From NCBI GenBank assembly GCA_009841255.1, contig VXMD01000035.1:4453-68452 (forward strand): a DNA stretch of 64,000 nucleotides, given 5' to 3'. Position numbers and translations under genes: made by a program. Below, piece by piece: positions 21,906 through 60,080 of this stretch. Position 1 is the stretch's first letter. Each line of letters opens with the position of its first letter. Source of the DNA: Candidatus Poribacteria bacterium. GTDB lineage: Bacteria; Poribacteria; WGA-4E; WGA-3G. The notes beneath the pieces are model-generated. The model was not told where the DNA came from. It worked only from the letters and a program-made list of their open reading frames with translations, and searched no databases.

Positions 21906-22547
21906 ATGAGTATTAAAAAACGTTATCACGATTTGCAAAAAGCGAGTCAAATACACCTCGGTTGGCAATGGCTCTTACCATTGCGCGGTGCCGATGCGTA
22001 CCACTTAAAATCGTTACGTATTCCTGATACCGACGAACAATGGGATTTTGATGGTTTGGTGTTAAGCCTTGTCAAGGTACTGATTGATTCCTTGAATGAA
22101 GAATCGCTGAAAAAACTGATTCCTTATGAGAAGCGGGAAGTCCTTAAAGATAAAAGCGGTGTTGCCCTCCTTGAAGATGTCTTGTATTTGAACTGCCTTG
22201 AAGGTGCTGATGTTCATATAGTTTTTCTACGGAAACTAGATAGCCTTCGTTCAAGTGGGGGTGCACAGGGAAAAAGGCAAAATTATTTAAAAATAGCGAA
22301 TCATTTTGGCGTTGAAGATCAGAGTCTACAACACGTTTTTGTCAATACCTTAAACAGTGCCTCGGATGTACTTGATTACTTCATTATCCTTGTAAATAGC
22401 GGACGGATCCGTGAAATCTTTGAAAAGAATCAGATGGAGGCAGGATACGCTATTCTGGATGAGATGATTGGAATGGCACCATCTGATCGAACTGATGGCT
22501 CTGTCAACCACGACGAAGTTATCTATGAATTGCAGTCAAAACCATGA
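21906..22547 (+). CDS. Hypothetical 213-aa protein translationally coupled to the downstream PIN gene (possible antitoxin or partner)
   Basis: It has a strong ribosome-binding site (GAAAGGAGG). Its stop overlaps the start of the next gene (ATGA). Confidence 0.4.
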   Translation: MSIKKRYHDLQKASQIHLGWQWLLPLRGADAYHLKSLRIPDTDEQWDFDGLVLSLVKVLIDSLNEESLKKLIPYEKREVLKDKSGVALLEDVLYLNCLEGADVHIVFLRKLDSLRSSGGAQGKRQNYLKIANHFGVEDQSLQHVFVNTLNSASDVLDYFIILVNSGRIREIFEKNQMEAGYAILDEMIGMAPSDRTDGSVNHDEVIYELQSKP

Positions 22548-22876
22548 TTTTTGTTGATACCGGTGCATGGATTGCTATGCTTAATCCGAACGATCAGTAC
22601 CATCGTGAAGCTGTAGCAATTTATAGACCCTTTCGGCAGCAGAAAACTCAGTTTTTAACCACAGATTATGTAATTGATGAGACTGTCACTCGCCTCAGAT
22701 ATGACACGAACCATTCGATAGCAGTTATATTCTTGGAGCGTATTGAGCGGCTTGTGGAGACAGGTGTTCTAATCCTTGTAGAAATTGATAACCGCATATT
22801 TCGGGGAGCGATAGCACTGTTTCGCCAGTACGACTCTGCACGGTTGTCTTTTACCGATTTCGATGATGGGAATTGA
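22544..22876 (+). CDS. PIN-domain (VapC-like) protein
   Basis: MIFVDTGAWIAMLNPNDQYH...LTTDYVIDETVTRL...SFTDFD places the acidic residues as in PIN domains. Confidence 0.65.
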   Translation: MIFVDTGAWIAMLNPNDQYHREAVAIYRPFRQQKTQFLTTDYVIDETVTRLRYDTNHSIAVIFLERIERLVETGVLILVEIDNRIFRGAIALFRQYDSARLSFTDFDDGN

Positions 22877-25972: not shown

Positions 25973-26308
25973 CTACTCATCAAGTCCTTCTTGTGTTGGT
26001 ATTTTCTGTTTGGCAGCAGTTTCAAACACTGACTGAAGATTCGCCAGAGATGTCGCGATTGATTCCAAAGCCTCTACTTCTCGGATCCGAAGTTCAGCCT
26101 CCTCCGAGGCAGATAACTCGACTTGGTTTGGTTCAGTCTCGTCTGACGTAACCTCGTTTGCCTTGGTCTCTCTTGGCGCAGGGGTGCTAACGGAAAGGTC
26201 ATTGACGTATCTGGAACGCAAATGTATTTTGAGCGTCTCCTGTAGTTCAATAATCTCTGGATCATTTAGGGCTTTCTCAACCACACTGAGTTCCTTCCTA
26301 CTTATCAC
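25973..26308 (-). CDS. Hypothetical acidic 111-aa protein
   Basis: This is an ORF with no recognisable motifs. It lies in the same orientation and operon context as the upstream NTPase gene. Confidence 0.35.
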   Translation of the reverse strand: MISRKELSVVEKALNDPEIIELQETLKIHLRSRYVNDLSVSTPAPRETKANEVTSDETEPNQVELSASEEAELRIREVEALESIATSLANLQSVFETAAKQKIPTQEGLDE

Positions 26309-26357: not shown

Positions 26358-27530
26358 TCATGTTTCTCGATCTAACTCATTTTTTTCTATTTTTATCACG
26401 TACGCTGGATCGATAATGCTCTTTCCCACTTCAAAGTGTTCATCACCAAGGGCTGTGTTAATAGCGTTACGGCATCTTTTATTGATGTTACGAGGGGTCT
26501 TTTTCTCTAAACCTTCCAGAAGCATTTGCAAGGCTGTTGGATCAAATGGATAAGTCAAAGGTAGCTGTTCTGGCAGAGATCCATCTCGGTACTGCGGGTG
26601 CTTGAGAAGCTCCTCTACATATTCGATTGCTTCATCCACTTCTAGTTCTGGAAAGTAGATGACATCAGTGACACGATCTAGTAAAGCACCACCTAAAATT
26701 GTCTCAAGATCCTCATACTCTTCAGGATCCGCAAGGGTCATATTAAGACAAAGGGTGAAATAGTTTGGCAGTCGATCGATCATGTCGCGGAGACCTTGTG
26801 ACACGATGCGAAACTGGGCTGAGGTCAAATAAATCAGATCCTCCATTTCATCAATCCAAAGACAAACGCGTGAAGGGTAAAAAGTTTCGCGATGTGAATC
26901 TAATCCAATTAAACATTGCAGAATACCTGCTAGCACGCGAAATCGATCTTGTGATTTGGTAATATTCCGTGCAATGCCAAGTTTTCTTAATTCAGCTCGA
27001 GTAACGCCTTCCAAAAAATAAGAGCGTAACAAAGCTTGGTTCTCATTGGCCTGCTCTGTTCCCAATAGCCAGAAGGCACGCGCAAGTTCTTCACTATCAA
27101 GAACCCTATGAAGTAAATCCAATGTTTCATCTTCTGATAAATTACCAATGGCATCTCTGATAATTCTGTGGACATGTCTCATTCCAAGCGTATCCAGAAT
27201 ATCAATGTAAAGATCTTCAGCAGGCTTTCCGAGTTCCTTTGGCACGCAAACATTGATTTGAAAAAAGCGATCTTTACCTGCAAGGGACTGAGGCAGATTT
27301 TCCTTATTTCTAAAGTAAAGTGAGGCGTGGGTTTTGCCACCACCCCAAGGACCTTGGTTAAGGATTACCTGAGTAGCAGAATCGGAGAGTGCGACTTCAA
27401 AGACCTCCTCAAATCGTTGTTTTACTTGCTTCATTCCTGCCCAAACAATTTGTTCCGCTTCGGTTGGTGGTGTCAAATCAAAAGGGTTTTTTTTCAAAAA
27501 TACAAGGTTCCAATCAAATTTGCCAATCAT
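26358..27530 (-). CDS. AAA+/ORC-Cdc6-like P-loop NTPase (defense-island component)
   Basis: The Walker A motif VILNQGPWGGGKTHA and the Walker B motif VCLWIDEMEDL are present. The protein is 390 aa. Confidence 0.6.
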   Translation of the reverse strand: MIGKFDWNLVFLKKNPFDLTPPTEAEQIVWAGMKQVKQRFEEVFEVALSDSATQVILNQGPWGGGKTHASLYFRNKENLPQSLAGKDRFFQINVCVPKELGKPAEDLYIDILDTLGMRHVHRIIRDAIGNLSEDETLDLLHRVLDSEELARAFWLLGTEQANENQALLRSYFLEGVTRAELRKLGIARNITKSQDRFRVLAGILQCLIGLDSHRETFYPSRVCLWIDEMEDLIYLTSAQFRIVSQGLRDMIDRLPNYFTLCLNMTLADPEEYEDLETILGGALLDRVTDVIYFPELEVDEAIEYVEELLKHPQYRDGSLPEQLPLTYPFDPTALQMLLEGLEKKTPRNINKRCRNAINTALGDEHFEVGKSIIDPAYVIKIEKNELDRET

Positions 27531-27532
27531 TA

Positions 27533-28207
27533 TTAACTCCTTATGTTCGCATAGGGTGGTAATTGGGAGAGAGTTTCATTAATTTTTTTTAATTTGCTAT
27601 TATAGCATCTTAATCTTTTTGCTGGAACGTCATTTTTGGTTTTACCACCTATACGCCCGTTGATGTCTTTTAAGGCAGCCTCAGCTATTTGAGAATGGAA
27701 TCGGTTCCTGTGTCTGGCAAAAAGATACAGCACAAAGTCAAGAGATGACCAAATTTCTCCAATCCGAAAATTGTTAAACACTCGAAACAAAGAACCATCT
27801 CGTTTTGGATCAGTCGTTTTCAGTTCATTAGTTAAAAAAATGACTTGACGATATCTACCGCTTAAAATTGCGTCTAGTGCAACACAGCAATTATGACATT
27901 CCCCTTGATTTTCGTTACCGTTCAACTTTATATCGAAATGCTGGACAAAAGCCTCCTCCAATTTTTTCAACTTGCTCTCTTGCCCTCTGAAACTCCACAC
28001 CGATTTTTTACATTTGTTTTCCATTCCAGTATCATTTAAATCAGGATGGTCGTGCAATTCGTTGCAGATCGCTTCGCTTAATTGAACATCAAATTCTTCC
28101 CATAGCCATAGCCATAGTTTCTTGTTTGCCACATCAATATCACGCATGTGAATCAATGAATTTGTGTCTGGAATGCACAATAAGCTTGACTTTTTTCTTC
28201 TACTCAT
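27533..28207 (-). CDS. PIN-like putative nuclease
   Basis: LLCIPDTNSLIHM (first-strand Asp), a later E, VALDAIL and IFLTNE match the PIN acidic-residue spacing. The assignment is by pattern only. Confidence 0.4.
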   Translation of the reverse strand: MSRRKKSSLLCIPDTNSLIHMRDIDVANKKLWLWLWEEFDVQLSEAICNELHDHPDLNDTGMENKCKKSVWSFRGQESKLKKLEEAFVQHFDIKLNGNENQGECHNCCVALDAILSGRYRQVIFLTNELKTTDPKRDGSLFRVFNNFRIGEIWSSLDFVLYLFARHRNRFHSQIAEAALKDINGRIGGKTKNDVPAKRLRCYNSKLKKINETLSQLPPYANIRS

Positions 28208-29420
28208 GTCTCCTCACAAAGTAGGATTCATTTTCCCGGGCTGACGTTCTGGCTTCATATCTGTAATTGTCTAATGTACGTGGTTTTTGGAACCATTGAA
28301 TAAGTTCTTGTATATTCGTCAAAAGACGCCATTCTGTCGCGAAACGTATACATAGATACATCGTCCCTTGTGTAAGAGAAATCTTTGGGATGCTAGTTTT
28401 GCGGAACTTATCAAACGCTTCGGGAAGATATTTTTCACAGGCTTTGTGTCGGACTTTGTCATTAACATCTTTCCACTGCCGTAGATCAGCATCACAAATC
28501 ATGAACGGGCTGACTTCTGAAAAAAACTGTGTGTTAAACCATGCCTCTGTGACGTCGGAGATATTAGGATTTTTCAATTTCGGGAAAGTTTTGGTCAAAT
28601 TCTGTCCAGCTTCCGTGAGTTGGTAAATGAAAGTATTTTTTTCTTTTGTTGCATCTAATAACCCAAGATCTAAGAGCCAGTGTAAACGGGAAGGGACTAT
28701 ATAAGCGGCATAACTCTCAGGCTTCCCCCATTCCCTCATAGCCCCAATTTGCCTGTCATGTAAGCGTCTTGTGATATGTTCCTGTGAACTTGTTAAAATT
28801 TTTGCTTCGAGACGCTCCAAAAAAAACTGCTCAAAATTCTTGTGTAGATTTTTGTTGTCGGGGTTTTCAAGCGATTGCACCATATTAATAACAGTTAGCA
28901 GAAAATCAGCGTCCTGTTGTAGAATTTGATAAATGTAAAAAATCCGTTCATCTTCACGAAGGCAGAATAAATTTGGATTTTCATTGGATTTATCATTGAC
29001 CAAACTCAAAAGAATTCTTCCAATTCTTGTTAATTGATAAACATTAGAAATTTGGGAGAGCAGCCCAAACTTAACCGCTAAATCAATATAGTTAATAGCT
29101 AATTGAATCATTCTTTTTTTTTGAATAGAGTGGGCAGCACCTGTTTGATATTTATAGTTTTCGAGATCATTTGTATGAGTATAACTCCAATTTCTTAACT
29201 TAATCGCTAAAACATCTTTACTTAATGGACGTGCTCTCACAAGCCCTAGTATTTGTGATAAATATCTAAGACGACGAACAAGCGAACTAGGGGCACTAAT
29301 GGCACGGTAAGAAATTTTCATAAATATTACTCCTACTTCTGTTCGGAAGTCATACCAAAGATTTTTTACAGTCTGTAACTCTAAATTCTGTACTACCGTT
29401 CTTTTGAATGTAGGACGCAT
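28200..29420 (-). CDS. Hypothetical 406-aa protein, the first gene of the operon divergent from dndC
   Basis: No DGQHR motif is present, so it is not a canonical DndB. It may be helix-rich or winged-helix. Confidence 0.45.
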   Translation of the reverse strand: MRPTFKRTVVQNLELQTVKNLWYDFRTEVGVIFMKISYRAISAPSSLVRRLRYLSQILGLVRARPLSKDVLAIKLRNWSYTHTNDLENYKYQTGAAHSIQKKRMIQLAINYIDLAVKFGLLSQISNVYQLTRIGRILLSLVNDKSNENPNLFCLREDERIFYIYQILQQDADFLLTVINMVQSLENPDNKNLHKNFEQFFLERLEAKILTSSQEHITRRLHDRQIGAMREWGKPESYAAYIVPSRLHWLLDLGLLDATKEKNTFIYQLTEAGQNLTKTFPKLKNPNISDVTEAWFNTQFFSEVSPFMICDADLRQWKDVNDKVRHKACEKYLPEAFDKFRKTSIPKISLTQGTMYLCIRFATEWRLLTNIQELIQWFQKPRTLDNYRYEARTSARENESYFVRRHE

Positions 29421-29556
29421 GAAATTCTGGAAGGTGAATGTCAGTCGGATTCAATATGGCAAGGAACGTTTGCTTCCGTTTAGCAGTCACTAATTGATAT
29501 TTTATCAGGAGTTGCGAATGGTCGCAAGCAAAAAACTGGAGTGTAGATGGAAAAAA

Positions 29557-29586
29557 GTGACATTTTAAACTGAATTATGCTATACT
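29557..29586 (+). promoter_or_regulatory. Candidate sigma70-type promoter for dndC
   Basis: GTGACA-18 nt-TATACT sits 57 nt upstream of the dndC ATG. Confidence 0.3.
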
Positions 29587-29642
29587 TTAGTAAGTGTGAT
29601 AGGTAATCAACCATTATTTTTCTTATGTTAAGGAATTAAATC

Positions 29643-31052
29643 ATGGCAGAAGCACCATACACCATCTTCGATTCGCGTACCCTTGACGATATCCATCGCG
29701 AAATTCAAGAGGTTTATCTTGAAAATGCTCGACCATGGGTTATCGGATATAGTGGTGGAAAAGATTCAACGACTGCTCTCCAGCTTGTTTGGAGTGCTAT
29801 CGCTGACCTGCCGCCTGAACAACGGAAATACCCAATCTATGTGATTTCGTCCGATACACTAGTTGAGACACCGGTAATCGTTAGCTATATTACTGGCACT
29901 TTAGACCGAATTAAGATGATCGCACGTCAACAGAATATGCCGTTTGAGACCTCACTTGTACACCCAAAAGTTGAGGACACCTTCTGGGCTTGTCTCATAG
30001 GCAAAGGGTACCCGGCACCGTATAGTCGTCTGCGCTGGTGCACGGATAAAATGAAAATTCGACCTGCTAACAGGTTTATCTTAGAAAAAGCTTCCGAATA
30101 TGGGGAGGTTATCCTTGTTCTTGGCGTGCGTAAAGGTGAAAGTGCTACACGTGATCAAGTAATGAACCTACATCAAACTAAAAATTCGTTACTTTTGCGG
30201 CATAGTTCACTTCCTAACGCGTTTGTCTACGCACCAATTGTCAATTTTAGTCTGAATGATGTTTGGATGTATTTATTAAGTAATCCTCCACCATGGGGAG
30301 GAGATCATAGGCAACTTGTTACGCTTTACCGGAACGCAAATGGACAGGGAGAATGCCCTCTTGTTGTCGACGAAACCACGCCATCATGCGGTAATAGTCG
30401 ATTTGGATGCTGGACTTGTACTGTTGTTTCTAAAGGTCACTCGATGGAGGGACTAATTGACAGTGGTCAAGATTGGATGTTACCATTACTTGAGTTTCGA
30501 GAGATTCTCATGGAAACTCAGGTACCTGAAAGGAAAGCGGATGTTCGAGAACATAGGAGGCGTAATGGGAAAGTTACAATAGACAAAAACAATGGAAAAT
30601 TGGTGCGTGGCCCTTATACCCTCGAATTCTGTAAAGAACTTTTAAGAAAACTTCTTGAGACTCAACAAAAGGTCCGTTTGATAGGACCTGATCCGAATAT
30701 CGAACTTATCACACATGCAGAACTTGAAGAAATTCGTAAAATTTGGCGAACTGAACGCCAAGATTGGGAGGATGCTGTTCCGCAGATTTACGCTGACGTT
30801 ATTGGTGAACATGAATGGATAGTTGATGATACGGTGGCCTTTTCGGCATCGGACAAGATGTTACTATCTGCAATTTGCGATGAAAAAAAGATACCTGTCA
30901 CTCTCGTGGCAAAATTGTTGGACACAGAACGGCAAATGGATGGTATGAGTCGGCGCGCGAGAATCCAATCTCAAATTGATGCAGTTTTCAGTGAAGATTG
31001 GGAATCAGAAGAAGAGGTTCTTACTGCCTTAAGTATTAGTAATCAACAATGA
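29643..31052 (+). CDS. dndC: DNA phosphorothioation sulfurtransferase DndC (PAPS-reductase-like PP-loop protein)
   Basis: The PP-loop motif GYSGGKDST and the Cys cluster CGNSRFGCWTC are present. The 469-aa gene is followed by overlapping dndD and dndE. Confidence 0.85.
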   Translation: MAEAPYTIFDSRTLDDIHREIQEVYLENARPWVIGYSGGKDSTTALQLVWSAIADLPPEQRKYPIYVISSDTLVETPVIVSYITGTLDRIKMIARQQNMPFETSLVHPKVEDTFWACLIGKGYPAPYSRLRWCTDKMKIRPANRFILEKASEYGEVILVLGVRKGESATRDQVMNLHQTKNSLLLRHSSLPNAFVYAPIVNFSLNDVWMYLLSNPPPWGGDHRQLVTLYRNANGQGECPLVVDETTPSCGNSRFGCWTCTVVSKGHSMEGLIDSGQDWMLPLLEFREILMETQVPERKADVREHRRRNGKVTIDKNNGKLVRGPYTLEFCKELLRKLLETQQKVRLIGPDPNIELITHAELEEIRKIWRTERQDWEDAVPQIYADVIGEHEWIVDDTVAFSASDKMLLSAICDEKKIPVTLVAKLLDTERQMDGMSRRARIQSQIDAVFSEDWESEEEVLTALSISNQQ

Positions 31053-33073
31053 TCCTTCACAAACTTACTCTCAACAATGTTGGTTTGTTCGGTAAATTAC
31101 AAACTGCTCGCCTTACACCGAAGAATGGCAAGCCTTTAATCCTGATTGGAGGGATGAACGGTACTGGAAAAACAACACTGTTGGAAGCCGTTCGCCTCTG
31201 TCTCTATGGTCGCCGGTCATTGGGATCTCGGGTTAGTCAGAATGAATACAACGAGTTCCTTTCTAAAATGATTCATAGGAGTCCTAATTTAGATCTGTCT
31301 CCAAAACAAGCATCTGTGTCGCTTGACTTTGAATATGCGCGTAGTAATGAAAAAATACTATTTCGTGTTGAGCGATCTTGGCAACGCTACGGCAGCGTCG
31401 GTAACATTAAGGAAAAACTAACAATATACGAAAATGATGAATTAAATACAGAGTTTGATGCGGGGCATTGGCAGGACTATCTTGATGAGCTGATACCAAT
31501 TGGTGTATCTCAATTTTTCTTTTTTGACGGTGAGGATATCCAGAAATTGACAGACGATTCCACTCACGATTTGTCCCTTGCTGAATCGATTAAGGCATTG
31601 CTTGGACTTAACTTAGTGGAGCGGTTGCAATCGGATCTGCATATCTATGCAAATCGTTTGGCAAAGCGCAGAAGTCCGGAACCTCTTCAGAAAGAATTTG
31701 AAACTGTAGAATCAGAAATCGAGACTCTTAGGTTGTCCCTCAAGAATGCAGATGAAACCTTAGAATCTATACAGACTGAAATTGAGAAATTAGAGTTGCA
31801 AATTGCGGAACAAGAATCCAAAATCGCCTCAGAAGGTGGGAATTATGGAAAAAAACGAGAAGGTTTGAAACTTCAACAGAAGCAACTCCATACTGAAACT
31901 GAAGAATTAGAAAATCAGATTCGTGACCTATGTGCGGAGTTGTTCCCGTTTGCGCTTGGCCCCGAACTACTCAAGCAGTTAAGAAAGCGGCTGCTTAGAG
32001 AAATTGAATTAAGCGAATGGGAGGCGCAAAATCGTGCCTTGAAAATTCAAAACATGAAACTCCTTGAAACACTTGATTCTGGAGCGTTTTGGGATGATGA
32101 CCTCTTATCAGAATCACAAATTGAAGTAGTTCGGTCCAAGATTGCCCCCCTTTTAAAGACGCAACTTAAACGTCCGGAAGAATTACAAACGTTCAAGAAA
32201 ATTCGGGACCGTTCTGCCTCAGAATATAACCAGTTATTAAAGTGGATTGATGCTTGTCTTAGTGATGTACCTCAAGAATTTCGGAAATTGAACGAAACTT
32301 TAAGAGAAACACACTTAAAACAGCAAAAAGTACAGCAGGCACTTCAAAGAGCACCAGACGAAGATGTACTAAAACCAATGCTTGAAAATCTATCGTCGTT
32401 AAATCAGATGCTTGGACAAGAATGTAAACAAGAAGAGGATACTAACAGATTGATACGTTCTCTGTCTCATCAGTTAGCAGAATCAGAACGTAAACTGGAA
32501 AAAATGTATAACACTCAGCAGCTAGGAACAGTAAACATCCAACGCCAACAACAAGTAAAGGATGTGCAATCAGTACTTTCTACGTATACAACCAAACTTA
32601 CACAAGCAAAAATTGAAACTCTGGGTAATGCTGTTGTCAAAGGCTTTAACCAACTCTCACACAAACCAGACCGAATTAAGCGAATTGAACTTAACCCACA
32701 GACTTTTGCTGTGACACTCTACGATACCTACAACCAACCTCTCTCAAAGGGAGAATTATCTGCCGGTGAAAAGCAAATATATACAACTGCCCTCTTATGG
32801 GGATTGGCAAAAACCTCTGGGAAGGCACTACCAATGATTCTTGATACTCCACTGGGACGTTTGGACGGTAGCCATCGTCGACTCCTTGCTGAACGTTATT
32901 TTCCGTATGCCAGTCATCAAGTGATTTTATTATCAACTGATACTGAAATTGAAAAATCCTTCTTTTCATTGTTGAAACCACATATTTCACACACACTCCA
33001 TTTAGTGTATCAGCAGTCTGAGGCTCGTACCACTATAGAAGATGGCTACTTTAGAGAATTATTATGCGATTAA
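31049..33073 (+). CDS. dndD: DNA phosphorothioation SMC-like ATPase DndD
   Basis: It has the Walker A motif IGGMNGTGKTTLL, a long coiled-coil middle and a C-terminal ABC signature and D-loop region (LSAGEKQ...MILDTPLGRLD). It is 674 aa and overlaps dndC by 4 nt. Confidence 0.85.
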   Translation: MILHKLTLNNVGLFGKLQTARLTPKNGKPLILIGGMNGTGKTTLLEAVRLCLYGRRSLGSRVSQNEYNEFLSKMIHRSPNLDLSPKQASVSLDFEYARSNEKILFRVERSWQRYGSVGNIKEKLTIYENDELNTEFDAGHWQDYLDELIPIGVSQFFFFDGEDIQKLTDDSTHDLSLAESIKALLGLNLVERLQSDLHIYANRLAKRRSPEPLQKEFETVESEIETLRLSLKNADETLESIQTEIEKLELQIAEQESKIASEGGNYGKKREGLKLQQKQLHTETEELENQIRDLCAELFPFALGPELLKQLRKRLLREIELSEWEAQNRALKIQNMKLLETLDSGAFWDDDLLSESQIEVVRSKIAPLLKTQLKRPEELQTFKKIRDRSASEYNQLLKWIDACLSDVPQEFRKLNETLRETHLKQQKVQQALQRAPDEDVLKPMLENLSSLNQMLGQECKQEEDTNRLIRSLSHQLAESERKLEKMYNTQQLGTVNIQRQQQVKDVQSVLSTYTTKLTQAKIETLGNAVVKGFNQLSHKPDRIKRIELNPQTFAVTLYDTYNQPLSKGELSAGEKQIYTTALLWGLAKTSGKALPMILDTPLGRLDGSHRRLLAERYFPYASHQVILLSTDTEIEKSFFSLLKPHISHTLHLVYQQSEARTTIEDGYFRELLCD

Positions 33074-33438: not shown

Positions 33439-33909
33439 CTAAGATATTAAATCTTTGTATGGTTCCCAGTTTAACAATAGATCAACTAAATTTTCAACTC
33501 TATTACCAGGGGCCTCTTCAACCTGTTCTTTAATCACAATAATTCCGCTATTAGCATATCCTTCTGCAATTCTTTGTATTTCTTTTTCATTTGTTAATAC
33601 TTCTGGATTTCCTGTTTTAGCCAGTGCCAAAGCGCGGAGAAGGGCTAAATCGTCCTCTTTAAATACAGTTCTCGCGAAAATATTCCGACGGTTTGTCCCC
33701 AGAGGAACCCATTTTTCCTGAAGGAATCCAATAAACGCGGCCAACATAAATAGGTTTTTCATTCCCTTAAAAGGCGGGTACTTCTCTCCTTCTCGGGATT
33801 CTTTTAGGGTTACATAGAGTGGATGATAGGACTCATCAATATAGACATAGTCTAGGGCTTGTACTTGTTCTGTTGTATTTGTTTCAATGCTTTCAGCAGT
33901 CATTATCAA
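33439..33909 (-). CDS. Hypothetical 156-aa protein, the last gene of the nuclease-helicase/ATPase operon. It has weak DndE-like similarity.
   Basis: An ATGA overlap links it to the upstream ATPase gene. Short local resemblances to DndE in this window: EDDLALLRALALAKTG against EWDSLIIALLEERG, and NRVENLVDLLLN against GIEDLVNLL. Confidence 0.45.
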   Translation of the reverse strand: MIMTAESIETNTTEQVQALDYVYIDESYHPLYVTLKESREGEKYPPFKGMKNLFMLAAFIGFLQEKWVPLGTNRRNIFARTVFKEDDLALLRALALAKTGNPEVLTNEKEIQRIAEGYANSGIIVIKEQVEEAPGNRVENLVDLLLNWEPYKDLIS

Positions 33910-35849
33910 TTTCCATTCTTATGCAATTCGTTGATCGTGGTTATGCTTATCTCATCGTCGAAATGCAATTCGTATTCCGCGCCGATCCGTGGTTCAAGAT
34001 TCCTCCATGCTCGCTCATCAGGTCGTAGTTCCTGGTCTGTAACAAATAAAATCAATTGGCTAGCGATAGAAGGAATGGTTTCGGTAATGTTTTCTTTTGG
34101 TTTATCGGAGAGTTTCGTAAAAGGAGCATCCATTACAATAGGAAAACGCTCTGTCGGCATATTAGACAACTTTTCCTTAACTGCTACTTTTGCTAGAGCA
34201 GCAATGAAAGCAAGGCTCAAAACCTCACGTTCTCCAGCAGATATCTCTGGACTTACCTGTCCATCATAGCGATCAATTACCTGAAGTTCGTAATTTGAAC
34301 TAAGACGTACCTCACGAAATGTATTTTCCTTCCATATCAATTTCTTGAAAATATCGCTGACCTCAATTTCAAGGTCTTTTCGCATATCCTCTTCAAGCGG
34401 GGCATATAATTCTTCCATTGCTGCTGCTGATTCCATAGCAAGCCGTCGACAACACTTCAGACGTTCTGCTTGAACTTCTAAAGATTTTGCCCTATCAATT
34501 TTCTGATCTAATGATTCTATTTCTACTTTGATTTCTTTAAGTCTACCTTTGTCTTGGTTAATCTTCGCTTCTAAATCTCTGATGTCCCGTTCGTATTCTT
34601 CCTGAGTTTTTTTATGTCTCTGGAAGTCATCGTCATCGAAATTTTCAAGAATCTTCTTAATTTCGTCTAAACGTGCTTCATTTGCCTCAATGTCCTTCTC
34701 TAGGCGTTGTTCGTCACTTAGTGTGGATTTAACATCAACAGGGATATTTTCAACCTTAGCCTCCAACAAGCGATTCAAACTGTTTTCTGTTTCTCTTACA
34801 GTAATACCAAACTCGGGAGAAACATTTTGAGAAATCAAATTTTGAATATGTTCATATTCCGGGCTCTCAGGATGAATAGATCTTCCACAAAGACAACGCA
34901 TATGTTCAAGTAAATCGTTCAGAATTGCATCAGGAATTCCGATCGGGGCTTTATTGCTACGGAGAATTGCTAATGCTTTTTCTATAGCAGATTGTGCTAA
35001 AGGGATAAAACCGTCATTAGCGAGTTGCAGAATCTTTTCCTGATACTTATCTTTTTCATCACCAAGCCTTTTCAGATTTGCTTTGATCGCTTTTTGTTCT
35101 TCAAAAAGCCGGCGAGTTTCCGAAAATTGTACAAGCACCTTCTCTAGGTCTTGTTTATGCTTCTGTGCGATTTTAACCTTTTTTACTTTATCTTTGATTT
35201 CCTCTGAAATTTTGACCCAAAGTGCTTCCTTTTCCTCTTTTTCACTAATTAATGCCTTTAATTCGTCCGGCACGTATTTCTTAAATTCACGCTGATAATC
35301 TCGAGTTACCTTTTCTAAATGTGTTATACCACGTTCAAACAACTCTATCCTCAGCACATTATGCACAGCACTTTTGATTTCATCTTCATTTCCTGGTTTG
35401 GCAAAATTATCTATCTTTTCGCCATCAAAAAAGAAGTGAGCACTTACATCTTCAGGAATAATAGACTGGATTTTGTCTGATGCACCAGCATCTAAATCTG
35501 CGGGTTCATTCTCTTTTTCCAGCAAAAAAGTTGGTTTATTATTGCGAAGCCATTGGCATTTCCGTTCTACTCGGTATCTAACATCCTGATCAATAAAACC
35601 TATTTCTACTGAAGTATCAACATTTTTTGCTTGCGCCACAACACGTCTATTCACGAATTCGCGGGTGTTTCCTTTAAAAAATGAATCTCCATACAAACAC
35701 CAGTTAAGAGCAGTAAGCAAAGAAGTTTTTCCTGTGCCATTAACTCCTCTGATGACTGTCACATTGCGATATTTATCAGTAGCAAAATGAATAGTTTGCT
35801 CACCATAATATGGACAGAAATTTTTTAACTTAATATAGTTAAGTATCAT
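33906..35849 (-). CDS. DndD-like SMC/ABC-type ATPase (second paralog)
   Basis: It has the Walker A motif VIRGVNGTGKTSLL, a long coiled coil, and a C-terminal signature and D-loop region (ISAGEREVL...IVMDAPFTKLSD). The N-terminus MILNYIKLKNF parallels the DndD N-terminus MILHKLTLNNV. Confidence 0.75.
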   Translation of the reverse strand: MILNYIKLKNFCPYYGEQTIHFATDKYRNVTVIRGVNGTGKTSLLTALNWCLYGDSFFKGNTREFVNRRVVAQAKNVDTSVEIGFIDQDVRYRVERKCQWLRNNKPTFLLEKENEPADLDAGASDKIQSIIPEDVSAHFFFDGEKIDNFAKPGNEDEIKSAVHNVLRIELFERGITHLEKVTRDYQREFKKYVPDELKALISEKEEKEALWVKISEEIKDKVKKVKIAQKHKQDLEKVLVQFSETRRLFEEQKAIKANLKRLGDEKDKYQEKILQLANDGFIPLAQSAIEKALAILRSNKAPIGIPDAILNDLLEHMRCLCGRSIHPESPEYEHIQNLISQNVSPEFGITVRETENSLNRLLEAKVENIPVDVKSTLSDEQRLEKDIEANEARLDEIKKILENFDDDDFQRHKKTQEEYERDIRDLEAKINQDKGRLKEIKVEIESLDQKIDRAKSLEVQAERLKCCRRLAMESAAAMEELYAPLEEDMRKDLEIEVSDIFKKLIWKENTFREVRLSSNYELQVIDRYDGQVSPEISAGEREVLSLAFIAALAKVAVKEKLSNMPTERFPIVMDAPFTKLSDKPKENITETIPSIASQLILFVTDQELRPDERAWRNLEPRIGAEYELHFDDEISITTINELHKNGN

Positions 35850-36016
35850 TGGGAGTCAACTTCCTTTTCAATGATTTTCTGAATATCTTCAATAATACCG
35901 CGAGGATTTCGCATATGCAGTTTTTGACGTTCAGCTGTAAGGACTTTACGAATCACGTTTTCTATCTGATGAGTTAAGTCTGTCTTTGCTTTAGGTAATT
36001 GTTTTTTTTCTTTCAT
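35846..36016 (-). CDS. Small 56-aa protein, absent from the ORF track, translationally coupled on both sides
   Basis: The sequence is MKEKKQLPKAKTDLTHQIENVIRKVLTAERQKLHMRNPRGIIEDIQKIIEKEVDSQ. Its ATG overlaps the upstream TGA (TGATGA) and its TGA overlaps the downstream ATG (ATGA). Confidence 0.4.
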   Translation of the reverse strand: MKEKKQLPKAKTDLTHQIENVIRKVLTAERQKLHMRNPRGIIEDIQKIIEKEVDSQ

Positions 36017-38082
36017 CAAGCTTCCCCTAACGCTCCCAAAAGGTTGTAATACTTAGCAAGTTCCCATATTTTATCACGTGCCTCAAATTTATTTAAGGCC
36101 ATTCCAGCAAATTCGCTAAATCTCTTTAGTTCGCGTGCAACGATTTTGCGCTCGGTAGCAAATGTTGCAGTTGGATATTGCTGGTAATCCATAGGTGGTA
36201 CAGCGATTAGGTCATGGATCTCTGCGTGTTCTTTACCAAGAGACTGCCTGAGAATCCGTCCACGCCGCTGAATAAATTCCTTCGGATTACTACTGCTCGC
36301 AAGGATATAAGCGGTTCGAGTGCTTGGCACGTCAACGCCTTCGTCCAGACACCTCATTGCTACAAGAGCTTGAAGATGTCCAGATGCGAACATCTTTAAC
36401 AATTCTTGTCTTTTAGCAGCTGATTCCTCCGCAGTGAATTTCGCAATTCGTAATTTCAAATTGGTTAATAATTCAAGAACTGAATCTACTCGTCCAGGAG
36501 CACAGTAAAATAATGTATGATGGAGTGAATCGGTTTTGTCAAATAATAATTCTGCCAACTTTGCCAACTTGTTTTCTGCTCGGTTAAGCAGTGCCGCTCG
36601 TTTTATCAGCAATCGTTCAAGTGCTTCACTTGTCTCACCAGATTCTACCAGATGATAAAGTTTTGAAATCCTTTCTGTGAGACGTTCATACTCCTCAAAT
36701 TCGCTGTCAGTCAACTCAACGAGATATGGATGATAATAGTAAGAACAGAGATATCCCTGTTTAATTGCTTTGTCGAGAGAAAATTCGTAAATTGTATCTC
36801 CAAAATAACTCCTGAGGGCAGCCGTACCTGGTGTGTCAAACCAGCGGTTAGGTGTTGCTGACAAGCCGAGACGGTAATTAAAAACCTCAGTTAATCTCTT
36901 GCCGCTTTGTTCTGCTCCAAGGTGGTGGACTTCATCCGCTACTAAAATAGCATCGCGTTTCAATTTGGAAAGTAATTTCTGCATGGTGTCATTTATAAAA
37001 GTGGTCTGTGTCGTAATAGTACAGACAACATCGCGAACACCATAATTATATCGCACTAAGGCAGTATTAAGCCGATTCACCCAAGTGGCAGAGCTTTTGT
37101 ATGCCAGGATTGGTTCAAATCCAAACCTGACTGCCTCCTCGTACCACTGATCAACGAGGTGCTGATATGGACACGCGATAACTACAAATAAATTTCCTTT
37201 TTCCCCTTTTAGTTTGGAAAGGGCAGAAAGAGCCGTGATCGTTTTACCAGTACCCGTCGCCATTTCCCATAAACCACGACATCTGTTCTTAAACCAAGCA
37301 TCAATCGCTTCAGACTGATACCCTCTTAATACTATGTCTTTTGGTAAATAAGGGGCGGTTTTTTCAATTATTTCTGGTTCATCTGTTGTCTCTGCTTGTT
37401 CTGTTTCATAGACCGTCTGATGGATTAAAAGTTCTTCCGTAACAGCACTTAGGAAATTTACAACATCCAACTTATCCGTGTTATTATCCCACAATTTCTT
37501 AAAATTATCTACTTTTTGTTGGACGCGTTCTTGAGTGTCATCCCATGACCAATGAACATCAATGGATTCAAAATTGTTTAGCAAACCGCCGACAGTTTCA
37601 TTTGATGAACCTGAAAATGCTACGGCGTTGTTATCATCATCTAAAAAGACTCCTATCTTTTCGTGATAGACTGCATGCTGATAATTTGTGTTTGAATCAG
37701 AGGGGAATGCGATTTTAATCTCTAAATGACCATGGGCAATTAACCAAGTGAGTAGCATTAATCTATCATGGGAAACTTGCAGAAAATCGCAGTCAAGGGA
37801 GGAATCTAAATTTTGTTTTCTTGCTTTGTAGCCGTATTGAATCGCCTCAATGTCATCTGACATCAATTTAGGTCCAGTTACCAAACTCATTTGCCCACCA
37901 TGCCGAATAAAAGTGGACAATCCTTTCACGTTCAAAGCAAGACCATTGCTAGTGAAATAGGCAACTGCACGATAATACCGTATGGCGTTTCTCAGACATG
38001 GTGTATAAAAGTCTGTAACAAGATTGGATCCGTCGGAACGATATTCAGATTGTAGCGATAGTTCTCTGAGTGACATAGGCAA
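36016..38082 (-). CDS. PLD-family (HKD) nuclease domain fused to an SF2 DEAD/DEAH-type helicase
   Basis: The single HKD motif is YHEKIGVFLDDDNNAVAFSGSSNET (HxK...D...GSxN). The helicase motifs are I (ATGTGKT), II (DEVHH) and VI (QRRGRILR). The protein is 688 aa. Confidence 0.8.
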   Translation of the reverse strand: MPMSLRELSLQSEYRSDGSNLVTDFYTPCLRNAIRYYRAVAYFTSNGLALNVKGLSTFIRHGGQMSLVTGPKLMSDDIEAIQYGYKARKQNLDSSLDCDFLQVSHDRLMLLTWLIAHGHLEIKIAFPSDSNTNYQHAVYHEKIGVFLDDDNNAVAFSGSSNETVGGLLNNFESIDVHWSWDDTQERVQQKVDNFKKLWDNNTDKLDVVNFLSAVTEELLIHQTVYETEQAETTDEPEIIEKTAPYLPKDIVLRGYQSEAIDAWFKNRCRGLWEMATGTGKTITALSALSKLKGEKGNLFVVIACPYQHLVDQWYEEAVRFGFEPILAYKSSATWVNRLNTALVRYNYGVRDVVCTITTQTTFINDTMQKLLSKLKRDAILVADEVHHLGAEQSGKRLTEVFNYRLGLSATPNRWFDTPGTAALRSYFGDTIYEFSLDKAIKQGYLCSYYYHPYLVELTDSEFEEYERLTERISKLYHLVESGETSEALERLLIKRAALLNRAENKLAKLAELLFDKTDSLHHTLFYCAPGRVDSVLELLTNLKLRIAKFTAEESAAKRQELLKMFASGHLQALVAMRCLDEGVDVPSTRTAYILASSSNPKEFIQRRGRILRQSLGKEHAEIHDLIAVPPMDYQQYPTATFATERKIVARELKRFSEFAGMALNKFEARDKIWELAKYYNLLGALGEA

Positions 38083-38894: not shown

Positions 38895-39728
38895 ATGAGA
38901 TTTTTTATGATTGTTGCTGGCGTACTCTGCGCCGCGACTCTTGCTCTCTGGACACCCACAGCTGATGCTGTTCCAAAAGTCGATATTTTTGTCTATACGG
39001 AAATAACGCAGTGGATTGGCCAGGGACAGGCACAAGAACAAGCCGATATATTCATAAAAGAAATGAAGGGCCAAAGAGGTATCGGTGAGATTGTCAATGA
39101 AGACGCCAAAGCTATTGAAAAGTGGACGAAGGATCACACCGAGGAAAAAGGCTATCACCTGATTAGCCTCTACGGTGATTTTCCACCTGAAATTTATCCA
39201 CAAGGCAATAAAGATGAAGATGGTTCCGTTGCTGAGGAATTCCTTGATGCCGGTAATACCTTCTCAAACAGTGCCGACTATTTCTTCTGGGGCTTAGCTG
39301 GAAGAAACCGTGAAGGTGGACTCCAAAACATGATGGATATCCCCGGTATCGTCCAATGGGATGATGACACAGCAATGAAAGTCACAAAGGAAGGGAAAAA
39401 ACTTACACCGACGCTGAAAGATTATGCCACCGATCGTCCGTTTCACGTGGATCAGCTTGCAAAAACAGATTGGGAAGTGGAAATCGCATTCGCTACGGAA
39501 ACAGGGAAATCGACGGGTATGAACCGGTGTGACCCGTGCATCATCCGGAATACGGAAACAGACGCACGTCTCATTCAGGTCTATCAGACGAATGGCCAAG
39601 ACGATCCGAAAGGTAAAGTCCTCTCGGAAATTCTCCTTAACTATTATCTTGAAACGATTGGGGCACTCGATGTAGATCCCCAAGAGAAACTCTCCACAAC
39701 GTGGGGCGATCTTAAATCCAGGAGGTAA
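38895..39728 (+). CDS. Secreted protein of unknown family with the C-terminal KLSTTWGDLK tail (paralog 1)
   Basis: It has a signal peptide (MRFFMIVAGVLCAATLALWTPTADA) and a strong ribosome-binding site (AGGAGG). Its conserved core YGDFPPEIYP...FWGLAGRNREGGLQNMMDI is shared with the next gene. It ends QEKLSTTWGDLKSRR. Confidence 0.6.
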   Translation: MRFFMIVAGVLCAATLALWTPTADAVPKVDIFVYTEITQWIGQGQAQEQADIFIKEMKGQRGIGEIVNEDAKAIEKWTKDHTEEKGYHLISLYGDFPPEIYPQGNKDEDGSVAEEFLDAGNTFSNSADYFFWGLAGRNREGGLQNMMDIPGIVQWDDDTAMKVTKEGKKLTPTLKDYATDRPFHVDQLAKTDWEVEIAFATETGKSTGMNRCDPCIIRNTETDARLIQVYQTNGQDDPKGKVLSEILLNYYLETIGALDVDPQEKLSTTWGDLKSRR

Positions 39729-39734
39729 AATTTA

Positions 39735-40538
39735 ATGCGAAATATTTTTCTTTCACTCACCCTGATTGCGTTACTGGCACTCCCTTTAACGCCTGTCCTT
39801 GCCGCCGGTGAAGTTGCTATCTATACCGGAATCACGCAATGGATTGGTAAGGCGCCAGCTGATGAACAGGCAGAAATTTGTGTCGGTCTGCTCGAAGATG
39901 CGAATATTGCTGTCACATGGTATGATAGCGATGGCCAAGCCGGAGACTTAGCCGATTGGATGGAAAGTGTCACCGGCGACGATGGCTTGGATATCTGTGT
40001 CCTTTACGGTGATTTCCCACCCGAAATCTATCCCGAAGGCAATGCGCAGACCGATGGCTCCATCGCTGAGACTTTCATCGAAACCACCGATGGGGACACT
40101 TTCATCAACCACGCCGATTACATGTTCTGGGGTTTGGCTGGTAGAAATAGAGAAGGTGGACTACAGAACATGATGGACATCGACGGTATTGTGATGTGGG
40201 ACGATGATACGCCTATGGTCGTCACGTCTGAAGGCAGTGCCATTTCTCCAAGTTTAACCGACTATGCATCCGACCGTCCATTCCACACCGATCAACTCGA
40301 CGGCGATTGGGAAATTGAAGTTTCACTCGCACAAAACGACGACGGCACCCGTGCCGATCCGATTATTGTTCGCGATGGGAACCTCGGTAGGCTGATTCCA
40401 ATGATACAGACCAATGGTGGAGATGAACCCAAAGGTGCTATCGCCGCTGAAGTTATCATTTGGCTGATGTCCACAACACCCGTTGAACCTGCTGGTAAAC
40501 TCTCCACGACGTGGGGGGATCTGAAAGCAGTTCGATAG
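39735..40538 (+). CDS. Secreted protein of unknown family with the C-terminal KLSTTWGDLK tail (paralog 2)
   Basis: It has a signal peptide (ALPLTPVLAAGE), the same conserved core, and ends AGKLSTTWGDLKAVR. Confidence 0.6.
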   Translation: MRNIFLSLTLIALLALPLTPVLAAGEVAIYTGITQWIGKAPADEQAEICVGLLEDANIAVTWYDSDGQAGDLADWMESVTGDDGLDICVLYGDFPPEIYPEGNAQTDGSIAETFIETTDGDTFINHADYMFWGLAGRNREGGLQNMMDIDGIVMWDDDTPMVVTSEGSAISPSLTDYASDRPFHTDQLDGDWEIEVSLAQNDDGTRADPIIVRDGNLGRLIPMIQTNGGDEPKGAIAAEVIIWLMSTTPVEPAGKLSTTWGDLKAVR

Positions 40539-57970: not shown

Positions 57971-58205
57971 AGCCTTGCTACACAAGGCGCGACGAAATCC
58001 GAATGGCTTGAAATTCAGAGAGTTTGAACGACTTATGCGTCGGTATGGTTGGACACAGCGCCGCCAACGTGGGAGTCACCGAACTTGGTACTCACCGGAG
58101 GGATACAGGATCATTGTTCAACCTGAGCGCTCGATGGCAAAGGGCTACCAAGTTCGACAATTTCTTAGACAATACAACAAGGAAGCAGCAAATGAAAACG
58201 AATAA
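57957..58205 (+). CDS. hicA: HicA-family toxin (mRNA interferase)
   Basis: The 82-aa sequence LKFREFERLMRRYGWTQRRQRGSHRTWYSPEGYRIIVQPE is the HicA pattern. Confidence 0.7.
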   Translation: MNRSEALLHKARRNPNGLKFREFERLMRRYGWTQRRQRGSHRTWYSPEGYRIIVQPERSMAKGYQVRQFLRQYNKEAANENE

Positions 58206-58599
58206 CCACGACGATTTTGACGGATTCATGATTAATGTATTCTTTGATGAAGATGGTGATTATCTGGCACATCTCGTGGAACTTCCCAATGTCTCTGCTT
58301 TCGGTGCGACGCCTTCCGAGGCACTGACTGAATTGAAAACCGCTTGGGAGTTGATGAAAGAATGTTATCAAGCGGATGGTGAACCTTTGCCACAAGCTCC
58401 CTCGCGCAAAGGTTACGAAGGTCCGCTCAATATCCCTGTTGATGCTCAATTGTATCATGCCTTGGCAGACGAAGCAGCAAAGTCTGGAATGAGCCTTTAC
58501 GCACTTGTAGCACAAAAACTGTCTGAACCAGTCTCAGCCGATGGTAACAGGAACCACTTGTCAAGAAAACTCAACTCAAAATCCCTATCCGAACCATAG
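58192..58599 (+). CDS. hicB: HicB-family antitoxin (copy 2, extended C-terminus)
   Basis: FDGFMINVFFDEDGDYLAHLVELPNVSAFGATPSEAL is nearly identical to the N-domain of copy 1. The ATG at 58192 overlaps the hicA stop. Confidence 0.6.
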   Translation: MKTNNHDDFDGFMINVFFDEDGDYLAHLVELPNVSAFGATPSEALTELKTAWELMKECYQADGEPLPQAPSRKGYEGPLNIPVDAQLYHALADEAAKSGMSLYALVAQKLSEPVSADGNRNHLSRKLNSKSLSEP

Positions 58600-58682
58600 A
58601 ATAATTGGTGTTAGGCAATCTAACGAAAAGAATGAGTTTACTCATAAGTGATTGGCAGTGGAAAAATAAATAAAAAAACGCG

Positions 58683-59348
58683 ATGGTTGCGTTTGTTATC
58701 GATGTGGATTTGATAAAAAATCTGCATATTCATCATATTTTGCCTATTAAAAGAAATTTCAATCGTATTGAGGATACCATTGTAAAAAATCCTCTAATCA
58801 TTGTTGAGTGTAAAGCCTTAGGAAACAAGGGAGATGGTATTGAACAGTTGAAGGGTTACTTATGTGCAAGAGATACGCCTTTCGGTATATTGGCAGTAGG
58901 TCCCAAACAAGGTAATTGGAAATATCATAAGAACCATGGCGGCTACAAATTTGAAACGCTTTCTCCTCGTAAAACTTTTGAAACTCAAGTTACTGACCGA
59001 GTAAATAGTGAAGCGACTGTGGCAGGAAAAATTGAAGAACGTGTTAATCAAGCAATAGAAAAGCAGAAGAACAAATTGCAAGCAGATTTCCAGAAGAGAG
59101 TAACAGATTTGGAGGATAATCAGCAAAAGCAGAAGAACAAACTTGAACAAAAACTCAGATTCGAATACAAAAATAATGAAACAAACTTGCAAGCAGATTT
59201 CCAGAAGAGAGTAACAGATTTGGAGGGTAATCAGCAAAAGTTGCTGAATGAAGCCCGAAAAGATAGTTTCAAAAATGGATTTTGGGCCGGTGCTATTAGC
59301 ATTGTTGTTCTAGTTATTGTAGTTGCAATTGCTGCCTCATGCGGTTAA
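58683..59348 (+). CDS. PD-(D/E)xK (HsdR_N/Mrr-like) N-terminal domain protein with a tandem-repeat coiled coil and a C-terminal transmembrane anchor
   Basis: NPLIIVECK is a nuclease-like core. The 21-aa unit KQKNKLQADFQKRVTDLE(D/G)NQQ occurs twice. There is a C-terminal hydrophobic helix. Confidence 0.45.
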   Translation: MVAFVIDVDLIKNLHIHHILPIKRNFNRIEDTIVKNPLIIVECKALGNKGDGIEQLKGYLCARDTPFGILAVGPKQGNWKYHKNHGGYKFETLSPRKTFETQVTDRVNSEATVAGKIEERVNQAIEKQKNKLQADFQKRVTDLEDNQQKQKNKLEQKLRFEYKNNETNLQADFQKRVTDLEGNQQKLLNEARKDSFKNGFWAGAISIVVLVIVVAIAASCG

Positions 59349-59441
59349 AAAGTTAACTGTGGTAAACCGAAAAAATAAATCGACATCTTAATATGTCTAT
59401 AGTCGTAGATAATGTTCTGTCTGGTACTCCAATAGAGGGCT

Positions 59442-60080
59442 ATGTCTGAGAATTGTCCAAAACTTGATATAATAATGAGTTATAGCAATTTCACCTTAGA
59501 ATCAGCATTAGCGGCGTTTCAATTGGAAAAGGCTGAATCCGCAGGCACCTTTTCTGAAGTAGAGCCAATTTCTCCAAGTGACTATCTCACAATTGGATTG
59601 GCGAAAAAAGTTCCCTTGGCAGCCGCTATCGGAACCGAAAAGGCACGCTCCGAACTCATTGTCGCTGACGTACTGGTTGAACTCCGGGAAAAATTCAACT
59701 ACCGTATCAGTTTTTTCTCAGGAATTGACTTTAATGTCGATCTGGAAAGCGACTTAACAGGAGTTTGTGATTTTTTAGTGAGTCTGTCACCAGGACAACT
59801 TTTTTTAGAGGCCCCCATCATCGTTCTTGTTGAAACGAAGAAAGACGATCCCAAACTCGGACTTGGGCAGTGTGTTGCCGAGATGATCGCTGCCCAACGT
59901 TTTAACGCTGAAAAGGGTAATGACATCCCATCTGTTTATGGGGTTGCCACGACGGGTACAGAATGGCAATTCCTCAAATTAGCGGAAAAGCGTCTACAGA
60001 TTGATATGGAAATTTATCCGATCCAGCAGTGCGACAAAATCCTCGGTATCCTCTCCAGTATGGTTGCCCAAAAAGCATGA
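59442..60080 (+). CDS. Hypothetical PD-(D/E)xK-like protein
   Basis: GVCDFLVS...APIIVLVETKKDD matches the D...E.K core arrangement. Confidence 0.4.
   Translation: MSENCPKLDIIMSYSNFTLESALAAFQLEKAESAGTFSEVEPISPSDYLTIGLAKKVPLAAAIGTEKARSELIVADVLVELREKFNYRISFFSGIDFNVDLESDLTGVCDFLVSLSPGQLFLEAPIIVLVETKKDDPKLGLGQCVAEMIAAQRFNAEKGNDIPSVYGVATTGTEWQFLKLAEKRLQIDMEIYPIQQCDKILGILSSMVAQKA

Follow-up and report, generated by a model that had tools for sequence, protein, structure and literature searches.

A widespread three-gene unit of a winged-helix protein, a PIN-fold protein and a P-loop ATPase accompanies phosphorothioate modification systems

What are the three genes that stand beside dndC in a locus where no DndB is encoded, and do they belong to the phosphorothioate (PT) modification system next to them? 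This question is raised by a 64,000-nt stretch of contig VXMD01000035.1 from a Candidatus Poribacteria bacterium (assembly GCA_009841255.1), to which we refer as the window. Adjacent to dndC and divergent from it lie three minus-strand genes that we term T1, T2 and T3, together the trio, and a 111-aa open reading frame (ORF), T4. A preliminary description of this DNA had considered them as a replacement or regulator module in the position of DndB, or as an independent defense system. We describe here that the trio is an unnamed family without a description in the open-access literature that we searched, which is widespread and a steady companion of PT modification systems. We lean towards the view that it works with these systems, most likely as an additional effector arm acting in restriction or abortive infection.

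The layout of the locus is that of an operon. T1 (28200..29321), T2 (27533..28207) and T3 (26358..27530) follow each other on the minus strand; the overlap of T1 with T2 is 8 nt and a gap of 2 nt separates T2 from T3, and therefore the three genes look translationally coupled. All four ORFs were found where they had been reported, as was the operon-like unit divergent from dndC. Since T1, T2 and T3 are all conserved across phyla (the trio is complete in 34 of 44 loci from GTDB genomes), they are real genes and not chance ORFs. The reading frame of T1 can be extended to position 29420, and the 406-aa ORF that was described earlier does exist, but its product probably starts at 29321 and has 373 aa. 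All 83 homologues begin at MKISYRAI and the 33-residue N-terminal extension of the longer frame is not conserved. The motif AGGAG is found 8 nt upstream of the ATG at 29321, and no Shine-Dalgarno-like sequence precedes 29420. T4 (25973..26308, minus strand) is indeed an acidic ORF that follows the trio (isoelectric point, pI, 4.55); it has no homologue in any related locus and is therefore placed outside the conserved unit.

Comparison of T1 to T4 with Pfam, NCBIfam and PADLOC models at E<=0.1 gave no match, except for a weak winged-helix hint in T1, in line with the earlier impression of an unclassified module. A tblastn search of T1 and T3 against a plasmid collection gave no match either. 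The homologues of the trio in public databases are all named 'hypothetical', and the nearest ones come from Candidatus Poribacteria, sponge symbionts. In the open-access literature we found no published account of the three-gene unit. Reviews and comparative-genomics papers name DndFGH/SspFGH, SspE, PbeABCD, DndI and assorted single nucleases as PT partners, and the sole mention of PIN proteins there is as peripheral 'backup' RNases that occur occasionally (PMC10853773, PMC12839542, PMC12707154).

T1 is a basic protein (pI 9.4), and its AlphaFold2 model is a chain of three winged-helix units (pLDDT 85.4, pTM 0.88) that is similar to the multi-winged-helix modules with which FokI, N.BspD6I and SspB recognize DNA. 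A Foldseek search placed the recognition domains of N.BspD6I and BpuJI near the top, at low TM scores of about 0.3. T1 has the two to three consecutive, superposable winged helix-turn-helix (wHTH) domains of the FokI/BpuJI/SspB/DndG/BrxA-type tandem module. This module is shared by FokI, SspB and DndG, and target recognition or modification discrimination has been proposed for it, including for DndG in DndFGH (Rakesh, Aravind, Krishnan, PMC10853773). By its modeled fold, T1 is predicted to be the DNA-recognition or discrimination subunit of the trio. At the level of sequence the DUF4007/SspB family gave no counterpart: there was no PF13182 match, the hidden Markov model (HMM) comparison with E. 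coli SspB was not significant, and hhalign against an alignment of 20 SspB sequences gave a probability of 6.7% from a local wHTH match only.

The second protein, T2 (224 aa, pI 9.1), adopts the alpha/beta/alpha fold of PIN domains in a VapC-like form and carries a C-terminal helical extension. The earlier label of a PIN-like nuclease candidate holds, and the feared absence of catalytic residues on proper alignment was not seen. Residue conservation was counted in 35 T2 members, and D14, E50 and G102-E103 are invariant (35/35). In the motif T126-[D/N]127-[D/E]128 residue 128 is always acidic, and position 157 is D or E in 32 of the 35; the copy in the window has N127, E128 and D157. The alignment thus contains the acidic residues of a PIN site, namely D after strand 1, E in a helix, D/E after strand 3 and a fourth D/E. 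Pfam PIN models did not match T2 at E<=0.1, and its membership is therefore read from fold and motifs only. T2 is predicted to be a PIN nuclease candidate and the effector of the trio. We also considered T2 as a VapBC toxin. VapBC systems consist of two genes, with a small antitoxin encoded directly ahead of a PIN toxin of some 130 aa. T2 has 224 aa, and its gene lies in a conserved unit of three, with those of the 373-aa wHTH protein and the ATPase on either side; we rejected this assignment. In a single metagenomic fragment of 342 aa (P0398) the C-terminal half of a T2-like PIN domain and the N-terminus of a T3-like ATPase are joined in one polypeptide, either as a T2::T3 fusion or through a lost stop codon.

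T3 is an acidic P-loop protein (390 aa, pI 4.9) in which Walker A (GPWGGGKT) and Walker B (LWIDEMED) are intact, as had been noted for the unusual GPWGGGKT motif, with about 155 residues inserted between them. Among 41 T3 members the consensus motifs GPxGGGKT and hhWxDExE are invariant or nearly so, and the invariant or near-invariant residues are G60, G63, G65, K66 and T67, W225, D227, E228 and E230, as well as N263, R286 and R347. By their spacing, the last three may represent sensor-1, the arginine finger and sensor-2. The AAA+ label given to T3 in the preliminary description is plausible and supported indirectly, by sub-threshold AAA_22 matches in 7 of 16 family members, sub-threshold TniB matches in 4 of 16 and PF10923 matches in distant relatives; T3 of the window has no Pfam match itself, and the T3 profile found no match among PDB sequences. 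A profile search of 1.84 billion representatives recovered 629 clusters (50% identity) at E<=1e-3, and distant relatives pass the cut-off of PF10923 BrxC_BrxD (22.2 bits) with 27.0, 25.0 and 22.4 bits. Judged by these relatives, T3 is probably a stand-alone ORC/Cdc6-type AAA+ ATPase akin to BrxC/BrxD. Hhalign of T3 against SspC gave a probability of 11.9% from a local P-loop match only. A transposon TniB-like identity of T3 was rejected, as the TniB matches are sub-threshold and no transposase or TniQ context was seen in the annotated neighborhoods.

To what extent is the trio tied to PT modification? GTDB was scanned with one genome per species, a metagenome scan was seeded with the T3 alignment, and the ORFs of all loci were searched with purpose-built HMMs. 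The GTDB scan yielded 44 loci from about ten phyla (Poribacteria, Gammaproteobacteria, Acidobacteriota, Cyanobacteria, Chloroflexota, Bacteroidota, Chlorobiota, Desulfobacterota, Myxococcota and Verrucomicrobiota) and the metagenome scan 79 contigs. A PT-modification gene is present in 31 of the 44 GTDB loci and in 36 of the 79 metagenome loci. In the GTDB set, 20 loci contain at least two of sspB, sspC and sspD, seven contain dndC and dndD, three a PAPS reductase only, and one, at a contig end, sspB only. When the count is restricted to GTDB loci that are complete and fully flanked, having all three genes and 5 kb or more to either side of them, 25 of 27 are PT-linked. Some 10% of genomes carry PT systems (PMC12914056), and hence this linkage cannot be chance. 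Conservation of the trio beside dnd genes in other genomes, the lack of which had been named beforehand as a refutation, is confirmed.

The two unlinked loci of the 27 are L016 and L028. L016 (15-12310; Pseudanabaena sp. 'Roaring Creek') has sspF-sspG-sspH upstream of the trio and a cysteine desulfurase gene downstream, in a co-directional order sspF-sspG-sspH-T1-T2-T3-cysteine desulfurase-ParA-like ATPase. No sspBCD was seen in the 16 kb examined, and the contig extends about 14 kb further upstream, outside the search. L028 (8181-11155) has no PT-related gene nearby: it holds a complete, diverged trio with no PT genes within 8 kb, and it comes from the same Poribacteria genome (OZ251518.1) as L040, a locus with a T3-only remnant (9902-11191) divergent from dndC-dndD-dndE-pbe.

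Loci of the L028 kind are where the trio could be seen as an independent defense or toxin-like system, with a PIN effector and an ATPase sensor, that is merely co-localized with PT genes in defense islands. PT genes are also not found near the trio in L032, L043 and L091, and in L032 it lies beside a NACHT gene; more distant T3 relatives stand beside methyltransferases and DUF87 (L053). The locus in the window is itself a low-GC island (0.40 vs 0.49), and ATPase-plus-PIN pairs are known as defense systems, such as HEC-03, a pair found within Hma systems whose ATPase is of the ABC type (bioRxiv 10.1101/2024.01.29.577857). However, the linkage is specific to PT genes and not to varied defense genes, as seen in the 25 of 27 fully flanked complete loci, and the trio is often intra-operonic, inside ssp operons of a modification type that only about one genome in ten carries. 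We therefore regard independence, which had been offered as one explanation of the locus, as unlikely.

The gene content of the trio loci is constant and the gene order variable. The trio is often part of one operon with the PT genes, with overlapping junctions or junctions of a few nucleotides, and the gap between T1 and the adjoining PAPS-reductase gene ranges from -52 to +71 bp in 13 GTDB loci. Found were the order sspB-C-D-T1-T2-T3, in which the PAPS-reductase gene directly precedes T1, sspD-T1T2T3-sspB-sspC (L061, L070-L073, L078), sspB-sspC-T1T2T3-sspD (L113, L114) and sspBCD-T1-T3-T2 (L055); the trio can also be divergent from sspB, or from dndC as in the window. In L061, L069-L073 and L078 the sspD gene of the sspD-T1T2T3-sspB-sspC arrangement has about twice its usual length (1.7-2.1 kb), presumably through an extra N-terminal domain as described for some SspD and BrxP proteins (PMC12839542). 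In L050 and L051 the trio adjoins BREX-type-4-like PglZ and BrxL genes. One co-directional block in L050 (1693-20886) reads sspA-B-C-D-T1-T2-T3, then a DUF4007 fragment, a 1557-aa protein, PglZ and BrxL. In a neighbor-joining tree of T3 the Dnd-linked Poribacteria clade, which includes the window, is nested in Ssp-linked diversity, and thus the Dnd association of the trio is derived and the Ssp association ancestral. A second, distant Dnd-linked lineage is represented by L123 and L127.

This history bears directly on the proposal that the trio replaces DndB as regulator of PT modification. The position upstream of and divergent from dndC would suit such a role, as would a predicted DNA-binding wHTH protein in T1, and a DGQHR protein is indeed missing: the motif DGQ[HQ]R is absent from the six-frame translation of the window, and HMM searches over the window found no DndB or SspE homologue. 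However, DndB (PF14072), dndCDE and the trio occur together in L001/L006, a co-occurrence that already largely refutes the replacement. The DndB models PF14072 and TIGR03233 match none of T1 to T4, and three proteins that include a nuclease and an ATPase are far more than a repressor needs. Most members of the family stand beside Ssp systems, with which it is ancestrally linked, and Ssp systems to our knowledge use no DndB. A replacement of DndB is thus very improbable.

We return to the reading of the trio as an effector arm of PT systems. In such a scheme, T1 would bind DNA and read its sequence or PT status, T3 would use ATP in a BrxC/BrxD-like manner to assemble or switch the complex on DNA, and the T2 PIN nuclease would cut invader nucleic acid that lacks the host PT pattern, the host DNA being spared through its marking by DndCDE or SspBCD. 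What the data show directly is the conservation of the genes, their genomic linkage, the two folds and the catalytic motifs; we infer that the three proteins may form a complex, that its substrate would be DNA or RNA, and that its action would depend on PT and confer a defense phenotype. The effector reading is favored because the parts follow the logic of known PT restriction complexes such as DndFGH, in which DndG, a wHTH protein, is combined with NTPase and translocase functions and with a nuclease. It is further favored because the trio is often the only candidate effector that was detected: a search over 10 kb detected no SspE, SspFGH or Pbe gene in 17 of the 20 GTDB loci with Ssp linkage, and none of the other known effectors in L002/L009, where dndCDE stands with the trio alone. 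A role outside modification is also suggested by the finding that PT modification can be established in E. coli with nothing more than the genes for SspABCD or DndBCDE (PMC8092258); since these genes suffice, and since L040 keeps dndCDE-pbe with a T3 remnant only, the trio appears dispensable for modification. Of all sspBCD clusters, 84% are without a known restriction partner (PMC8092258).

Several observations weigh against an effector role. The trio coexists with every known PT restriction partner and so need not be the restriction arm of its host: SspE-like genes lie beside it in L017 and L052, genuine sspFGH in L016, L045, L069 and L071, and PbeABCD in the window, L005 and L010. A distant T2-T3 sub-clade (Thiomargarita, Parabeggiatoa and some metagenome contigs) has no PT genes nearby, which adds to the four loci without PT genes named above. 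PIN domains, including the closest PIN structures, are mostly RNases, and restriction of DNA by T2 is not implied by its fold. An accessory role in modification would explain just as well why the trio lies inside ssp operons and immediately next to the PAPS-reductase gene. Finally, the minimal loci L025 (7243-11227), L029 (7299-11092) and L035 (6881-12063) consist of only a PAPS-reductase gene, SspD-like or DndC-like, with T1-T2-T3 immediately downstream of it. In L025 this set is flanked by rhomboid and DUF218 genes at one end and by a LacI gene at the other, and in L035 an HNH endonuclease gene directly follows T3.

The last two points lead to the main alternative, in which the trio helps modification to find its targets, as an accessory or a substitute apparatus: T1, with its SspB-like fold, and T3, in an SspC-like role, would guide SspD or DndC to DNA, and T2 would nick it. 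In the minimal loci the trio would then replace SspB/SspC or DndD/DndE. The constant adjacency to the PAPS-reductase gene, the embedding in ssp operons and the three loci that consist of a PAPS reductase plus trio all speak for this. Against it, most loci have full sspBCD or dndCDE, next to which T1 and T3 would be redundant, and PT modification in heterologous hosts is obtained with SspABCD or DndBCDE alone (PMC8092258). A conserved PIN active site would be unexpected in a sulfur-insertion pathway, and the hhalign values for T1-SspB and T3-SspC given above reveal no sequence-level homology. We consider targeting a possible function, though not a probable one. A related proposal is that the trio and a single PAPS reductase make up a self-contained four-gene PT restriction-modification system, for which the gene sets of L025, L029 and L035 are the model. 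Here T1 as reader and T3 as ATPase would direct sulfur insertion and would also license the PIN nuclease. If true, there would be a third apparatus for PT targeting, with no sequence relationship to DndDE or SspBC, which in larger loci would be stacked on Ssp or Dnd systems; we think it rather unlikely.

In the window, the effector reading would have one DndCDE module serve two effector modules, the trio and a PbeABCD-like one. One modification module with two effectors is known from SspE plus SspFGH (PMC8092258). The modification genes dndC (29643-31052), dndD (31049-33073) and dndE (33064-33426) are encoded on the plus strand and score above the cut-offs of TIGR03183 (553.6 bits), TIGR03185 (514.8 bits) and TIGR03184 (76.4 bits), respectively; PADLOC likewise assigns them to DndC, DndD and DndE. 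No cysteine desulfurase or dndA gene was found within the window. At the C-terminus of DndC, residues ~407-449 give a sub-threshold match to 'Sp-DndD' PF20306 (E 1.7e-4) and a weak match to PADLOC PbeB, so that a small Dnd/Pbe-associated protein appears fused to this DndC. The divergent intergenic region between T1 and dndC (29322..29642) has one promoter-like site per direction, GTGACA-18-TATACT with an extended TG on the plus strand (29557-29586) and TTGCGA-17-TAAAAT with a TG on the minus strand (29527-29499); both are consensus matches only, and the total count does not exceed the shuffled expectation.

On the opposite side of dndCDE from the trio, the pbeABCD-like restriction module (33439..38082) occupies the minus strand. 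It comprises PbeA with PLD and helicase domains (36016-38082; PADLOC PbeA, 812 bits), a 57-aa ORF in the PbeB position (35846-36019) that overlaps the PbeA and PbeC genes by 4 nt each, PbeC (33906-35849; PADLOC PbeC, 388 bits) and a 156-aa dnd_assoc_4-like, D-like protein (33439-33909). The module looks complete with the 57-aa ORF in its expected position, and its NCBIfam scores are below the cut-offs (TIGR04095, 561 bits, cut-off 600; TIGR04062, 46 bits, cut-off 74). Trio, dndCDE and pbe are covered by a low-GC island of about 13 kb (~25.95-38.9 kb; GC 0.40 vs 0.49 elsewhere), with ABC-2 permease and GFO/IDH/MocA genes at its left border and an FGE-sulfatase gene at its right. Genes of these types also flank the trio in other Poribacteria (L001, L002, L003, L052), a pattern that points to a recurrent insertion neighborhood. 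At the right island edge, 38895..39728 and 39735..40538 (plus strand) encode adjacent paralogues of ~270 aa with hydrophobic, signal-peptide-like N-termini and a common core 'GDFPPEIYP...GGLQNMMDI'; the first has no Pfam match. Just outside the island, at 21906..22876 (plus strand), a 110-aa VapC-type PIN protein (PF01850, above cut-off) overlaps the end of a 213-aa ORF without Pfam match, and this may be an unrelated toxin-antitoxin pair. A second GC dip (0.41) is found at 58001..60000, at the ORFs 58683..59348 (221 aa, no Pfam match) and 59442..60080.

The described PT restriction partners are few, namely DndFGH, SspE, SspFGH, PbeABCD and DndI (PMC10853773, PMC12839542, PMC12707154). The trio is small, widespread and non-homologous to them, and combines a predicted reader, nuclease and ATPase. 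As an effector arm it would fill part of the PT partner gap and offer a compact system of ~3 kb for studying PT discrimination; the reading of PT status is still poorly understood. Should it serve modification instead, the accepted minimal gene sets would change. Either outcome is directly testable, since cultured carriers exist, such as Confluentibacter sediminis DSL-48 (L039) and Pseudanabaena sp. 'Roaring Creek' (L016).

How, then, does the trio compare with known systems? PADLOC candidate systems, including HEC and PDC, gave no match. An identity with SspE is ruled out by the curated models, and the trio coexists with SspE-like genes. Like DndFGH and SspFGH, the trio is a three-gene cassette beside PT modification genes that joins a Walker-A NTPase, a predicted DNA-binding subunit and a predicted nuclease, and T1 resembles the FokI/SspB class to which DndG, a triple-wHTH protein, has been assigned (PMC10853773). 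Unlike these complexes, the trio contains neither a helicase nor an FtsK/HerA domain, and a PIN protein takes the place of the restriction endonuclease. No NCBIfam or PADLOC model of DndFGH/DptFGH matched it at E<=0.1, although PADLOC v2 may not hold every DndF, DndG and DndH model. The proteins of SspFGH have no sequence similarity to the trio and are far larger (605, 510 and 1794 aa for E. coli C10 SspF, SspG and SspH, compared with 373, 224 and 390 aa for T1, T2 and T3), SspH contains an FtsK/SpoIIIE domain, and HMMs of T1-T3 against the E. coli C10 proteins gave negative bit scores, so that we rejected this identity as well. The trio also differs from SspB/SspC and from BrxA with BrxC/BrxD of BREX, as T1 has no DUF4007 match, T3 of the window has no Pfam match, and the trio occurs in addition to SspB and SspC. 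We know of no dedicated PIN subunit in either BREX or Ssp systems.

PbeABCD resembles the trio in flanking dndCDE as a separate operon and pairing with Dnd modification. However, it is built from entirely different proteins, with a PLD-helicase, an ABC/SMC-like ATPase and small proteins, and the PADLOC Pbe models match the genes at 33906-38082 and not T1-T3. VapC has a PIN fold like T2, and VapBC has a small antitoxin and no ATPase; HEC-03 pairs an ATPase with a PIN protein as the trio does. The trio is set apart from both by the extra T1 protein and the linkage to PT genes. TdpABC combines the PAPS-reductase-like TdpC with the hexameric ATPase TdpA and the nuclease TdpB. In this respect TdpABC is similar to the minimal loci L025, L029 and L035, where one modification enzyme likewise stands with an ATPase-nuclease pair.

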